The notes below the pieces were generated by a model. That model was given only the letters and a program-made list of their open reading frames with translations, did no database searches and had not been told where the DNA came from. The position numbers and the translations under genes are program-made. Source: an uncultured Clostridia bacterium (GTDB lineage: Bacteria > Bacillota > Clostridia > TANB77 > CAG-508). From it: a DNA stretch of 64,000 bases. Location of the stretch: NCBI GenBank assembly GCA_944387445.1, contig CALXEX010000002.1, positions 28,290-92,289 of the forward strand. The letters run 5' to 3'. Shown here one piece after another: positions 1,513 through 26,297 of this stretch (its first letter is position 1; each line of letters opens with the position of its first letter).

Positions 1513-2233
1513 AAAATTTTATATTTTCTTCTTCATCAAATAATACAGCATCATCTTTATGCAATTCTTCCTTTTTATCTTCCATATTTGCTAATCTATG
1601 TGCTAGATAAAATACGATGCATATAGTACTAACATATATGGCTATATATAATATTGTTTTTACTTTAAAATTTGTATAAGCATTAACACTTTCTTCAATA
1701 TATGCTTCTTTATCATCTAAATATTTTATTCCAGATAATCCAACCGTTACTCTTTTTGAATTTGTATTTCCTTGTTCATAGGTTTCATAAAAATCTCCAA
1801 ATGTTTCTTTCGTATATTGACTATCTAAATATATTTTTAATCCTAAATGAATAAAAACAATTAATAATGATATGATTCCCACTAATTTTAACCCTTTTAT
1901 AATTGTTTCTTTTTGTTTGGATAATATTGTAATCAATGTAGCTAAGATAACTGTTGCAAGAATACTAATCAATTGAAAGTTTAAAAATGTTTCTTTTGTT
2001 TCTGCTATTGGGTCGTCAAATGTAACTTGATAAGCAAACAGATATACTGCAACTGCTATTAGAATGATAAGAATTACTGATATGAGTTCCATTGCAATAA
2101 ATGTTTTATCATAATATATGATAAAATATCTACGTCTTCCCCAATAATGTGAATAATGTGGTGCACTATATCCACCATTTCCATTATCTTTTCCTATATC
2201 AATATTAGGAACTTCTCCTCTATTTCTAAACAT
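1511..2233 (-). CDS. Hypothetical membrane protein
   Basis: 240-aa ORF with several TM helices. No family recognised. Confidence 0.5.
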   Translation of the reverse strand: MFRNRGEVPNIDIGKDNGNGGYSAPHYSHYWGRRRYFIIYYDKTFIAMELISVILIILIAVAVYLFAYQVTFDDPIAETKETFLNFQLISILATVILATLITILSKQKETIIKGLKLVGIISLLIVFIHLGLKIYLDSQYTKETFGDFYETYEQGNTNSKRVTVGLSGIKYLDDKEAYIEESVNAYTNFKVKTILYIAIYVSTICIVFYLAHRLANMEDKKEELHKDDAVLFDEEENIKF

Positions 2234-2358
2234 ACCCCTTTTTCTCCTTTTATGATTACTTTAAAATAATGGTATCATATAACTTTCTGTATTGCAATGT
2301 TTCTTTATTGTTTTTTATTTCAATTGGCTTTCTATTTTTTGTCGTTTTTTAACTTTTA

Positions 2359-2742
2359 TTAAATATTTACTCGATATTTTTCAGTTCTTTTTCCTAAATT
2401 AATCGTACTTTTATTTGTAATTTCTATTTTAGGAATTAAATACATTTTTTGCTCTGCATCTAATACAAATATATAATCTACATTTGTATTTACTATTGTT
2501 TTATATTCCTTTCCTTTTGTTCCACCACAACTTTTCAAAGCTACTTGATATACATTATTTCTTGTTTTACAGCCTGTTGCTTTTACTTGTACTGTGTATA
2601 ATTTATTACATTTTTCTATTACCAAATCATAATCTTGTGTATCATTTAAAGGTATGGATACTGTATATCCTTTGGTTGTAAAATATGCTACTGCCATTCC
2701 TAAACCTGAATTTCCTTTTTCTTTATTAGTACCAAAATTCAT
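2359..2742 (-). CDS. Small PD-(D/E)XK endonuclease, I-Ssp6803I-like (PDDEXK_5-type)
   Basis: Pattern KGNSGLGMAVAYFTTKGYTVSIPLNDTQDYDLVI...YTVQVKAT...VDYIFVLD...MYLIP matches the small group-I-intron-associated PD-(D/E)XK nuclease family. Preferred start is the ATG at 2742 (AAGGAG 5 nt upstream), not the TTG at 2757 used by the track. Confidence 0.6.
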   Translation of the reverse strand: MNFGTNKEKGNSGLGMAVAYFTTKGYTVSIPLNDTQDYDLVIEKCNKLYTVQVKATGCKTRNNVYQVALKSCGGTKGKEYKTIVNTNVDYIFVLDAEQKMYLIPKIEITNKSTINLGKRTEKYRVNI

Positions 2743-2778
2743 AGCTTCTCCTTTCAAAACATTTGTTTGTTAATTTAT

Positions 2779-2808
2779 GTAAAATAAAATACAAGTTTCC
2801 TTGTATTT
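2779..2808 (-). terminator. Intrinsic terminator after tRNA-Tyr
   Basis: Minus strand reads AAATACAAGGAAACTTGTATTT followed by TATTTT. Confidence 0.5.
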
Positions 2809-2810
2809 CA

Positions 2811-3124
2811 TGGTGGGCAGGGAAGGATTCGAACCTTCGTACTCAAATGAGAACAGATTTCTTACTACTATAGTTTTCACTACCATAATCAAAATATCAT
2901 GTTTGTAGTCTGGACTTTCTCTTTATCTTTTTCAAGATACCAGGTATAAAGTCTCTACACTCGGAAATTTCTTTCCTAGCTCGGGATTGTCATCAGCCTA
3001 ACTGTTAAGAGTTCCCCGAATTAGCCCGGTGTTCATCATATAATCACTTATATGAGCTGCAAGTTTAGGTTTTGATTAACCAAAGACCACAGTCTGCCGC
3101 CTTTAGCCACTCGGCCACCTACCC
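2811..3124 (-). tRNA. tRNA-Tyr(GTA) interrupted by a 228-nt intron (exon 1 3089-3124, exon 2 2811-2860)
   Basis: The reverse complement reads GGGTAGGTGGCCGAGTGGCTAAAGGCGGCAGACTGT, then the insert, then AAATCTGTTCTCATTTGAGTACGAAGGTTCGAATCCTTCCCTGCCCACCA. This gives a 7-bp acceptor stem, a D arm, an anticodon stem GCAGA/TCTGT, the loop CTGTAAA, a long variable arm, a T arm GAAGG/CCTTC and an encoded CCA. It is co-linear with Bacillus tRNA-Tyr. Confidence 0.85.
2861..3088 (-). ncRNA. Group I intron (IC3-like, ORF-less) in the tRNA-Tyr anticodon loop
   Basis: The 5' exon ends in U and the insert ends in G. The strings GAGTGTAGAGACT and ATAAAGAGAAAGTCCAGACTAC parallel, from memory, GGUGUAGAGACUAGACGG (Azoarcus tRNA-Ile intron) and UAAAGAGAGAGUCC (Anabaena tRNA-Leu intron). 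AAACCTAA and TATGG receptor-like strings are also present. Confidence 0.75.
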
Positions 3125-3139
3125 ATATATTTATTTTAA

Positions 3140-3216
3140 TGGTGCTCCCTCAAGGATTCGAACCTTGGACCCACCGGTTATGAGCCGGTTGCTCTGACCA
3201 ACTGAGCTAAGGGAGC
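3140..3216 (-). tRNA. tRNA with CAT anticodon (elongator Met or lysidine-modified Ile2)
   Basis: The reverse complement reads GCTCCCTTAGCTCAGTTGGTCAGAGCAACCGGCTCATAACCGGTGGGTCCAAGGTTCGAATCCTTGAGGGAGCACCA, a full cloverleaf. The G1-C72 pair argues against an initiator tRNA. Confidence 0.85.
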
Positions 3217-3248
3217 GTTTATAACGCTTTTTCCTCAACGCAAGATAC

Positions 3249-3277
3249 AGTATAAACTATTTTTATGTAGTTGTCAA
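3249..3277 (-). promoter_or_regulatory. Sigma-A-type promoter for the tRNA pair
   Basis: Minus strand reads TTGACA, a 17-nt spacer, then TATACT, about 30 nt upstream of the first tRNA. Confidence 0.6.
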
Positions 3278-3380
3278 GACATTTTTCCAAATTCCTATAA
3301 TTTTTAAGTCACAATGTAAGTTTCAGTATACTCACGAAAGGAGCTAGTTTTCATCCTAACTCCTTTTCATTTACTTCTTT

Positions 3381-4274
3381 CTAATTATCTGAACCTTTAC
3401 CTTCTGGTAATGCTGGATATTGTATAACAATTCTAATTTTTGATATGTATCGAATAGCTCTAACAATTTTACTATTTTTAATTCTTTGCCATAAACTTGG
3501 TTTTGCCTCAAAAGTTACTTCTTGTTCATATTGTTGTTGCTCAACATTTACTTGCTCTTTTTGTTTTGTTTTTTGTTTTACTTTTTGTTTTGCTATCTTC
3601 TCTACTTTTTGCTCTTCTTGTACTTGTTCTACTACTGGTTCTACTTCTTCTGCTGGTGCTGGAATAGATTTTAATGCATCTGCCACTTCAATTCCTATGT
3701 AACTTAATGCTTTTGATCTATCTTCTATTCTTTCCATATCAATTTCTATATGCAAATTAGATTCAAGATTTGTTACTCTAGCATTTAATAACTTCATAGC
3801 GTCTTGATAATTTTGAGATTTCTTTCCTTTACATTTTCCAACAATGTTTAATGTATCAATAATGTCTTCTGGAAATTCGTCTTCTGCCTCTTTTACTTGA
3901 TCTTTCCAATTTTTTTCTTTATTATCTACAATCTCAATTAGTTCTTTTAGTCTTCCTGATAAAGCTATGTTTTCTTCTCTTTGTCTTATTAATTCTTCAA
4001 TTTTCTTTGTATTTTCTTCAAATTGATTTGTTGCATATTCAACCAATCCATATGCAGCTTTATAAACACTTGCAGGAAAATTCTTCTTTTTTGGATATTC
4101 AATTAAATATGCTTTTATAGACTCTATTAAATCTTTAAAATAAGAATCATCCTCTAATTGTACAATTTGTTTTTTACTGTTTGGATTGATAAGTTTATGT
4201 ACTTTATCTATATTTGATAATATTTTCTCCTCAGTGATAACCATTCTCACATTTACTATGCCAGATCTAGACAT
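3381..4274 (-). CDS. Hypothetical coiled-coil protein, K/E/Q-rich
   Basis: 297-aa ORF with AAAGGAGGGA SD. No family recognised. Confidence 0.5.
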   Translation of the reverse strand: MSRSGIVNVRMVITEEKILSNIDKVHKLINPNSKKQIVQLEDDSYFKDLIESIKAYLIEYPKKKNFPASVYKAAYGLVEYATNQFEENTKKIEELIRQREENIALSGRLKELIEIVDNKEKNWKDQVKEAEDEFPEDIIDTLNIVGKCKGKKSQNYQDAMKLLNARVTNLESNLHIEIDMERIEDRSKALSYIGIEVADALKSIPAPAEEVEPVVEQVQEEQKVEKIAKQKVKQKTKQKEQVNVEQQQYEQEVTFEAKPSLWQRIKNSKIVRAIRYISKIRIVIQYPALPEGKGSDN

Positions 4275-25749: not shown

Positions 25750-26029
25750 TTTTTCTTCCTCCTTTATTTTAGGCTACTAACAGTTGTACAAAGAAAAACA
25801 GGCTAAAGAAACAGCCTCAGTTTATATATGAGGTGCTTACTTGCACCTATTTTTCAATGTACTGCAACCACTTTGGTTTGCACAGACTATATTATACCAC
25901 TTTCCTATAAGCTTTTCAAATTTTTTATCTAGGACTTGCTTATTTTTTCATTTTAGTATAATATAATAAAAGTAAATTAAACGTATGCAAAAAAATTCTT
26001 AAGAAAGGAGGGCAATATTTTATTCATAT

Positions 26030-26165
26030 ATAGCGCCTGGACACGATAGATTTGTGTTGACGAGGTTCAGGGTTATCGAAAAATTCGGCGGATGCTCTGA
26101 TGGCTTTCACTTATGGTCATAAGTATTAATGAAAAAGCAGTAGTGATACTGTAACAAAGGTTAAT
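26030..26165 (+). ncRNA. glmS ribozyme (GlcN6P-dependent self-cleaving leader)
   Basis: A^GCGCCTGGAC ... TTGACGAGGTTCAGGGTTATCGAAAAATTCGGCGGATGCTCTGATGGC matches the conserved glmS ribozyme core. Lies about 130 nt upstream of glmS. Confidence 0.85.
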
Positions 26166-26297
26166 ACATATAAGTTTTATTTGCATACCTTTAATTCCAA
26201 CAATCTCTTGTATCTTAGAGATATTATCAAAATTTAGCAAAAATAATTTAATATATTTATTTGTATATATTAAATTATTGAAATGGAGGATTATATT

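Follow-up and report, generated by a model that had tools for sequence, protein, structure and literature searches.

Group I introns that interrupt bacterial tRNA genes are known from a growing number of settings; a purely computational preprint by Williams raised the number of known tRNA-intron settings from 4 to 21 by adding 17 new classes, including Tyr.4Ug, which has tRNA-Tyr as its host (bioRxiv 10.1101/2020.01.27.920355). A characterized endonuclease associated with such an intron is I-Ssp6803I, which recognizes a 23-bp pseudo-palindromic target (PMC3384342) and which, according to the title of Bonocora and Shub 2001 as cited in PMC3984707, is specific for the tRNA-fMet anticodon region. 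In a further arrangement, described under the name "collaborative homing", a free-standing endonuclease targets the insertion site of an intron and the intron makes its carrier immune (PMC3984707); the F-CphI/psbA case is discussed in PMC6083498. Here we describe a locus in a 64,000-nucleotide (nt) stretch (hereafter, the window) of contig CALXEX010000002.1 from an uncultured Clostridia bacterium, in which a tRNA-Tyr(GUA) gene is interrupted by a predicted group I intron and is followed by a free-standing gene for a predicted PD-(D/E)XK endonuclease of the I-Ssp6803I family.

Comparison with related loci (designated L001, L004, etc., where they need to be told apart) supports the identification of the insert as a bacterial tRNA group I intron of IC3-like type, with the fold shown by covariation and catalysis expected from what is known of group I introns in general. 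We hold with considerable confidence that a common precursor, splicing and a neighbouring homing endonuclease, taken together, explain the locus. With regard to the endonuclease itself, action as a free-standing homing endonuclease is the likeliest role suggested by the comparisons, albeit a less certain one.

The interrupted tRNA-Tyr gene and its intron

The tRNA-Tyr gene lies on the minus strand and consists of two exons and an insert:

3089 to 3124, minus strand: tRNA-Tyr exon 1, 36 nt, comprising the acceptor 5' strand, D arm, anticodon-stem 5' strand and C32 U33 G34 U35
2861 to 3088, minus strand: predicted group I intron, 228 nt, without an open reading frame (ORF); its terminal G (omega-G) is at 2861
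2811 to 2860, minus strand: tRNA-Tyr exon 2, 50 nt, comprising A36, the remaining anticodon arm, a long variable arm, the T arm, the acceptor 3' strand and CCA

Exon 1 reads GGGUAGGUGGCCGAGUGGCUAAAGGCGGCAGACUGU (3124 to 3089) and ends in CUGU, with the U at 3089 as the residue before the 5' splice site (U-1); exon 2 reads AAAUCUGUUCUCAUUUGAGUACGAAGGUUCGAAUCCUUCCCUGCCCACCA (2860 to 2811) and encodes the CCA. The insert, read from 3088 to 2861, starts with GGUCUUUGG (GGUC) and ends with GUAGUAAG (AAG). In-silico removal of these 228 nt between anticodon bases 35 and 36 yields an 86-nt tRNA that ARAGORN calls tRNA-Tyr(gta). Its acceptor stem is perfectly paired over 7 bp, its D stem has 3 bp, its variable arm is long and its CCA is encoded; the predicted ligated-exon junction is GGCAGACUGU / AAAUCUGUUC (CUGU/AAA). 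An earlier note on this DNA had proposed a canonical long-arm tRNA-Tyr(GUA) interrupted by a group I intron, with a U before the 5' splice site and a G ending the insert; ARAGORN in intron mode, run on the unspliced DNA, returned tRNA-Tyr i(37,228), i.e., exactly the boundaries of that note, and both splice-site residues (U35, and G at 2861) are as it described them. With default settings, ARAGORN found no tRNA-Tyr at the locus, and Rfam at its gathering threshold found neither an intron nor a tRNA-Tyr there, with the neighbouring tRNA-Met as the only match in both cases. The interrupted gene is the sole tRNA-Tyr gene within the window. Between species, the exons are conserved and the T stem shows a compensatory change from GAAGG/CCUUC to GAUGG/CCAUC, which argues that the tRNA is in use.

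A model of the intron fold was drawn by hand on the window sequence and comprises the following helices:

3057 to 3092, minus strand: P1, exon CUGU (3092 to 3089) and intron GG (3088 to 3087) against the guide UUGCAG (3062 to 3057), with a U-1/G wobble
3036 to 3055, minus strand: P2, an 8-bp hairpin with GNRA loop GUGA
2940 to 3029, minus strand: P3 (3029 to 3025 with 2944 to 2940), enclosing P4, P5/P5a and P6/P6a
3019 to 3014 with 2986 to 2981, minus strand: P4
3010 to 2990, minus strand: P5/P5a
2980 to 2959, minus strand: P6/P6a, with a GAAA loop
2912 to 2955, minus strand: P7 pseudoknot (2955 to 2949 with 2917 to 2912), enclosing the P3 3' strand and P8; predicted guanosine-binding helix
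2939 to 2924, minus strand: P8, with a GAAA loop
2864 to 2909, minus strand: P9 three-way junction of P9 (ACUAC/GUAGU), P9a and P9b, the last with a GAAA tetraloop, followed by AAG and omega-G

Strong covariation supports this model. Among 38 Clostridial introns, 98.3% of cells were paired and 30 of 65 pairs had changed on both sides (164 cells), a result reached by none of 500 shuffles, while slid controls gave 36-44% paired cells and 6-10 such pairs; in P2, seven of the eight pairs had changed on both sides with 100% of cells paired, and P9, P9a and P9b each contained compensatory changes. Across 89 cores (P3-P8, aligned with a covariance model) from tRNA-Tyr, Asp, Asn, His and Thr hosts, 97.0% of cells were paired and 25 of 35 pairs were compensatory (661 cells), again with 0/500 shuffles reaching this result and 36-45% paired cells in slid controls. 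P3, P4, P5, P6, P6a and P8 all covary in these cores, including 5/5 pairs in P3, 3/6 in P4, 5/5 in P6a and 6/6 in P8. A foldable core could be drawn from P3 to P8, with the P3/P7 pseudoknot and 97-98% of cells paired, and it contains both strings that the earlier note had quoted as typical of tRNA intron cores (GUGUAGAGACU at 2960 to 2950, UAAAGAGAAAGUCC at 2925 to 2912). The four P1 pairs between exon CUGU and GCAG, including U/G, are invariant in all 37 distinct Clostridial sequences, and pair 10/37 alternates between A-U and G-U. The minimum-free-energy fold of the single sequence recovers P2, P8 and the P9 domain (z = -2.4), and the core covariance model has a single match in the window, at 154.7 bits, with the window sequence itself among the inputs of that model.

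These alignments (one Clostridia-only, one a model-guided alignment of the core) replaced a MAFFT alignment of Clostridial introns with shorter, mostly Patescibacteria introns, which was dropped because it misaligned P3 and the 3' domain. Two pairings were likewise removed from the model: a sixth P3 pair (A68-U159) gave way to an extension of P8 (159-174), where a U-A to C-G switch occurs, and an inner P9 pairing (190-193 with 215-218) was abandoned in favour of hairpin P9b, since 215-228 covaries in that form. In Clostridial tRNA-Tyr introns, the P1 loop contains an additional hairpin (3063-3086, minus strand, in the window; columns 12-42 of alignment A2), of which at least three sequence types occur (GGUCUUUGGUU.., AGGCUUUGAUU.. 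and AUGCUUUGCU..); it was left out of the fold model because the alignment is unreliable there. This hairpin is missing from L099, which is Clostridial, and from the shorter introns, most of them from Patescibacteria; in all of these, P1 is a plain 6-bp helix closed by a short loop. In the relatives L058 and L128, P5 reads UCUAAG...UAUGA, a sequence that we take to resemble the 11-nt GAAA receptor.

A scan of species-representative genomes (one genome per species) for the guide sequence plus two core strings identified at least 119 loci. Among the matches listed, intron-aware ARAGORN assigned the host as tRNA-Tyr(gta) in 45, Asp(gtc) in 21, Thr(tgt) in 19, Asn(gtt) in 8 and His(gtg) in 3, with 23 other or uncalled hosts; 43 of the 45 tRNA-Tyr loci have the insertion site of the window, and all 43 have U-1 and omega-G, as do 44 of 44 tRNA-Tyr introns when that of the window is included. 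At least 34 of the same-site species are represented by metagenome-assembled genomes (MAGs) of gut or rumen Clostridia, with introns of 201-248 nt; the other loci, at least nine, have introns of 192-213 nt and are mostly from Patescibacteria, with two labelled Gammaproteobacteria. The earlier note had considered a tRNA-Tyr host unusual, a view that is out of date given that class Tyr.4Ug was catalogued in 2020 and that the same site is occupied in at least 43 species-representative genomes here. Intron DNA was also sought in phage genomes, without a match. Three Patescibacteria loci (L092, L077 and L032) each contain two matches to the core model within 8 kb, i.e., more than one intron of this family in a short stretch.

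Among described introns, the seed Mba143.Tyr.4Ug (CUGU/AA-ACAA-UUGCAG...), which is contained in the seed alignment of the Williams preprint (bioRxiv 10.1101/2020.01.27.920355), shares with the window intron its host, its insertion site (CUGU / intron / AAA, after the fourth loop base), U-1, omega-G, the guide UUGCAG and the core strings GUAGAGACU...AUACC...AGUCC. In contrast to this seed, the Clostridial lineage of the window adds the P1-loop hairpin, has UCGGGG/UCCCGA rather than ACGGUG/UACCGU as P4, and has a P9/P9a/P9b three-way junction, as in the Leu, fMet and Arg introns, rather than a single P9 hairpin. The window intron adds a member to the catalogued Tyr.4Ug class, perhaps as a distinct sub-lineage. 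With the classical IC3 introns of tRNA-Leu, tRNA-fMet and tRNA-Arg, it has in common the anticodon-loop location, a length of ~200-250 nt, a GNRA-capped P2 and the presence of GUGUAGAGACU and AAGAGAAAGUCC, as well as the 3' layout that the Leu, fMet and Arg introns show in the Williams seed alignment (ACNAC-AAAC-hairpin-GNNGNGAAANNNNU-...-AAG). Its peripheral layout is that of IC3, with a single P2 (GUGA) and P9b (GAAA), both supported by covariation, in a comparison judged by layout. Unlike the classical IC3 introns, it has a different host, follows base 35 (versus 34 in Leu and 36 in Arg and Ile2) and scores below the Rfam threshold.

A free-standing endonuclease gene and its association with the intron

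Downstream of the tRNA-Tyr gene lies an ORF that the earlier note, whose central reading of the intron is supported, had not mentioned:

2359 to 2742, minus strand: free-standing PD-(D/E)XK endonuclease gene of the I-Ssp6803I family, encoding 127 amino acids, with a GGAG ribosome-binding site at 2751 to 2748

This ORF starts 68 nt past the tRNA 3' end, behind a hairpin, and is therefore outside both the tRNA gene and the intron, which has no ORF of its own. The predicted protein matches Pfam PF11645 (PDDEXK_5) at 2e-16 and 60.7 bits (cut-off, 26.1), its only PDB sequence match is 2OST (I-Ssp6803I), and the top four Foldseek matches of its structural model are 2OST chains (E 3.5e-5, identity ~23%). 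D39 and Q52-x-K54 are invariant in 27 homologues. A homologue carries the NCBI name "group I intron-associated PD-(D/E)XK endonuclease"; NCBIfam gave no match for the endonuclease or for the neighbouring genes. The ratio of nonsynonymous to synonymous substitution rates (dN/dS) between species is 0.11-0.38, indicating purifying selection. The window protein thus resembles I-Ssp6803I (2OST) in its PF11645 domain, in the D...QxK motif of the alignment and in its tie to an intron-bearing tRNA gene; it differs in that I-Ssp6803I is encoded inside the Synechocystis tRNA-fMet intron, whereas the window gene is outside intron and tRNA and its activity and target are predictions.

Relatives of this gene occur in other arrangements as well. 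In L134 (1735-2049; the intron-bearing strand is the reverse of the stored locus), a distant homologue with 31% identity is located just upstream of an intron-bearing tRNA, called Ser(tga) by ARAGORN, a second way in which a free-standing endonuclease gene adjoins an interrupted tRNA. Phage homologues with 35-46% identity, annotated as hypothetical only, were found in Escherichia phage SelmaRatti (L234, 70652-71023) and Pseudomonas phage KoPa-4 (L235, 90084-90449); they are free-standing ORFs in tRNA clusters, between intronless tRNA genes, and one of them extends over the start of an annotated tRNA-Leu.

An ORF-less intron with an adjoining free-standing endonuclease gene is found in the window, in at least 18 species-representative loci and in several metagenome loci, and homologues from protein databases are likewise located beside intron-bearing genes. 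Among intron-bearing Clostridial loci with enough flanking sequence, 19 of 32 have an intact endonuclease gene; of the 13 that do not, L058 retains a remnant. L103, in which the flank is too short for the locus to be counted, retains one as well. For intronless genes, metagenomes were scanned for tRNA-Tyr sharing these D-arm and variable-arm sequences, which yielded 86 loci; the usual GCAGA/UCUGU anticodon stem is present in 85. No intact endonuclease gene was found beside an intronless tRNA-Tyr with this stem in the 73 loci with enough flank (~51 distinct flanks); four of the 73 have remnants that have lost the catalytic core through internal deletions. L165 has an intronless GCAGA-stem tRNA-Tyr and, ~10 kb away, an endonuclease copy (L165:11280-11800) that is interrupted by an in-frame stop and sits behind a decayed tRNA-Tyr 3' fragment. 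Intronless tRNA-Tyr genes with a CUUGA/UCAAG stem were found in L017/L018 and in L170. Only in L017/L018 does an intronless tRNA-Tyr have an intact endonuclease gene next to it; at this locus, the intron is precisely absent and the stem is changed.

A Fisher test of intact versus not intact genes (19/13 vs 0/51) gave p ~1e-10, and one on loci keeping any trace of the endonuclease gave p ~0.001, values that are indicative only since both tests ignore shared ancestry and the two sets come from different collections. A same-species intronless allele at the same locus was sought and none was found, the nearest syntenic intronless loci having ~77-83% flank identity.

Possible collaborative homing and alternative explanations

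The features above suggest the following mechanism. One precursor containing tRNA-Met and the interrupted tRNA-Tyr(GUA) would be transcribed from a predicted promoter at 3277 to 3249, and the intron would fold into P1-P9; free guanosine would attack after U-1 (3089), held in a U/G wobble with the guide UUGCAG, omega-G (2861) would next take the same site, and exon ligation would restore the anticodon loop CUGUAAA. At the DNA level, the endonuclease is proposed to cut the uninterrupted tRNA-Tyr around its anticodon stem-loop, which forms a pseudo-palindrome (CAGA-CTGTAAA-TCTG); repair of the break would then transfer the endonuclease gene, together with the nearby intron, to the allele that was cut, and the intron would shield its carrier from further cleavage, i.e., collaborative homing. 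The occurrence of the endonuclease beside the intron, and of no intact copy beside intronless GCAGA-stem genes, fits collaborative homing without proving it. In its fullest form, this interpretation would have chromosomal collaborative homing caught at every stage of its life cycle, with cleavage at the pseudo-palindrome and protection either by the intron or, in one lineage, by a compensatory rewriting of the stem from GCAGA/UCUGU to CUUGA/UCAAG, and with loss of the intron becoming possible after decay of the endonuclease gene; we put this form forward tentatively, as a possibility that could well turn out otherwise. As in the phage cases, the comparative pattern at this locus suggests that the intron protects its carrier. 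Unlike them, it concerns a tRNA gene on a bacterial chromosome and a PD-(D/E)XK enzyme for which cleavage of the insertion site is a prediction, whereas the described cases involve phage protein-coding genes and other nuclease families.

A number of observations weigh against this interpretation or parts of it. With regard to the intron, the earlier note had suggested RF00028 (Intron_gpI) as a check, and the outcome is divided: a local scan of 601 nt aligned 3092 to 2888 (minus strand) with model positions 1-253 at E = 2.6e-8, but the 38.5 bits obtained are below the curated gathering score of 50, and RF00028 gave no match at the gathering threshold and none in a larger E-value search of four homologous loci. 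The 12 RF00028 seeds of that time included no bacterial one according to the Williams preprint, in which matches down to 18-20 bits were used (bioRxiv 10.1101/2020.01.27.920355). The sub-threshold score is a property of one model rather than of the intron family, and the match is, judging from the site, U-1 and omega-G shared by 44 tRNA-Tyr introns and from the strong covariation, not due to chance. P7 is 100% paired in the 89 cores, with a last pair that switches from U-A in Clostridia to A-U in the others (8 vs 81), but most of its bases were fixed by the search pattern and their invariance thus says little. As for the endonuclease, its AlphaFold model is moderate (pLDDT, the predicted local distance difference test score, of 68), and its link to the intron is correlational, between phylogenetically related loci in two sets from different collections; their close spacing (~120-350 bp) could by itself hold the intron and the endonuclease gene together. 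The changed stem with an intact endonuclease occurs in one lineage only. Finally, intact endonuclease genes in L019 (1-360) and L236-L241 (280-900) are located by decayed tRNA-Tyr 3' fragments with no intron nearby, and upstream of these genes we found no intact tRNA and only the decayed 3' fragment. The decayed fragments in L019, L236-L241 and L165 still end in GCACCA and keep the same terminator hairpin, and it looks as though the endonuclease cassette has moved or been duplicated together with the tRNA 3' end.

This last observation is also what one would expect under the main rival explanation, namely that the endonuclease targets either intergenic DNA lacking the endonuclease gene or the 3' flank of the tRNA ("intronless homing", as with the seg/mob genes of phages) and that the intron, only a few hundred bases away, hitch-hikes by co-conversion. 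Such a target would be in keeping with the position of the gene outside the intron, where it has a ribosome-binding site of its own, with the presence of all combinations (intron and endonuclease, intron alone, endonuclease alone), with the conserved motif at the 5' edge of the cassette and with phage homologues between intronless tRNA genes. It predicts, however, that an intact gene is tolerated beside an uninterrupted GCAGA-stem tRNA-Tyr, which was seen in 0/73 loci; all four adjoining remnants and the L165 copy ~10 kb away are inactivated, and the single intact case (L017/L018) has an altered stem. The reported specificity of I-Ssp6803I for a tRNA anticodon region (to the extent that the title of Bonocora and Shub 2001 conveys it), with its 23-bp pseudo-palindromic target, also speaks for a site within the tRNA gene. 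We consider targeting of the flank somewhat unlikely.

It is improbable, by a wider measure, that the PD-(D/E)XK protein has been domesticated, as a maturase-like splicing helper or as a repair or defence nuclease kept for the cell. The dN/dS of 0.11-0.38 across species and the conserved position at a syntenic chromosomal locus would suit a domesticated gene, but its patchy presence in close relatives and its repeated inactivation by deletion or stop codon are typical of a homing cycle and not of a host gene, and the many intron-bearing species without an endonuclease gene indicate that the endonuclease is not needed for splicing. Least probable of all, and to be given very little weight, is a dead tRNA-Tyr pseudogene with a non-splicing group I remnant and an intact tRNA-Tyr elsewhere in the genome: the sub-threshold Rfam score, the view of 64 kb of the genome and the existence of decayed relatives (L006, with a 27-nt P9 deletion; L022, with a truncated exon 2; the tRNA-Tyr fragments in L165 and L019) would allow it, but intron helices and tRNA stems are kept by compensatory substitutions across dozens of species, at 98% pairing that neutral decay would not keep, with U-1, omega-G, the guide and the P7 helix (the expected guanosine binder) intact, a strong predicted promoter and an encoded CCA.

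The damage in L006 and L022, both metagenome contigs, may be either real decay or an assembly artefact; in L006 (217-677), the missing P9 segment includes the GAAA hairpin, and in L022 (388-756), exon 2 lacks its T arm and 3' end, and the terminator is absent too.

Surroundings of the locus and significance

The following further elements, all on the minus strand, surround the tRNA-Tyr and endonuclease genes:

3249 to 3277, minus strand: predicted sigma-70-type promoter (TTGACA, 17-nt spacer, TATACT) upstream of the tRNA-Met/tRNA-Tyr pair
3140 to 3216, minus strand: tRNA-Met(CAT), called by ARAGORN (Rfam tRNA, 73.3 bits), 15 nt upstream of tRNA-Tyr
2781 to 2808, minus strand: terminator-like hairpin with a 9-bp A/U-rich stem and a GAAA loop, followed by a T-run; read from the sequence and conserved in related loci
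2756 to 2771, minus strand: conserved motif AACAAACAAATGTTTT, located after the hairpin and before the ribosome-binding site of the endonuclease gene

The promoter, with 11 of 12 matches, is the top promoter-like site within 2200-3500, and equivalents of its TTGACA...TATACT are present upstream of the tRNA pair in related loci, where the Met-Tyr pair recurs; tRNA-Met and tRNA-Tyr are probably co-transcribed. In a human-gut contig (L142, 1-720), a DinB-like polymerase gene with its own promoter, and not tRNA-Met, precedes the intron-bearing tRNA-Tyr and the endonuclease gene, which indicates that the Met-Tyr pairing is not obligatory. The hairpin at 2781 to 2808 was not called by a consensus terminator scan, which requires three G-C pairs. 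The motif has the form (A/G)AACAAA(A/T)GTT(T/C)T and is found at the same position in L014, L017, L044, L100, L115 and others; it is present in most endonuclease-positive and some endonuclease-negative loci, survives gene loss in L033, L058, L124 and L131, and has half-sites that co-vary (GAAC..GTTC vs AAAC..GTTT). It may act as an operator, mark a boundary of the cassette or form a small hairpin.

The window has a G+C content of 27.7%. Contigs with the same genes come from gut metagenomes and carry sporulation genes (YabP, YqfD), and the closest named genomes among the matches listed are "Clostridia bacterium" MAGs. The only other Rfam match in the window at the gathering threshold is a full-length glmS ribozyme/riboswitch (RF00234, 94.7 bits) at 26021-26177 on the plus strand. 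Sub-threshold plus-strand matches to Plastid-ycf2 (RF04354) at 3142-3216 and Plastid-psbl-rps4 (RF04351) at 2814-2861 were rejected as spurious, since they are antisense to tRNA-Met and to the tRNA-Tyr 3' exon, respectively, and the models apparently contain antisense tRNA sequence. Many metagenome contigs with the endonuclease gene (L004, L005, L007, L008, L010 and L012) start 54-77 nt into the tRNA-Tyr 3' region, and contig L001, coming from the opposite side, terminates within tRNA-Met. An interpretation of contig ends inside the intron 3' end as intron polymorphism was dropped because assembly breaks at sequence common to co-occurring relatives are likelier; such breaks imply that the locus is often split in MAGs.

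The interrupted gene has consequences for genome annotation. tRNAscan-SE was not built to handle group I introns (PMC8450103), and default ARAGORN and Rfam both miss the gene; as standard tRNA finders overlook it, tRNA-Tyr will seem to be missing from genomes of this widespread group of gut and rumen Clostridia. Should the interrupted gene be the sole copy, all tyrosine codons in these organisms would depend on ribozyme splicing. More interesting than the intron itself, and new here, is the intact, free-standing I-Ssp6803I-like endonuclease beside it, together with the comparative pattern. Endonuclease genes that are intact, decayed or absent, at intron-bearing and intronless loci across many species, form a compact and testable natural system for asking how an endonuclease and an ORF-less intron cooperate in a cellular chromosome and whether a nuclease of this kind shapes tRNA sequences. 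If collaborative homing is true, a selfish nuclease would impose selection on the sequence of an essential tRNA, and the locus would provide a natural bacterial model for the assembly of mobile introns from separate parts.

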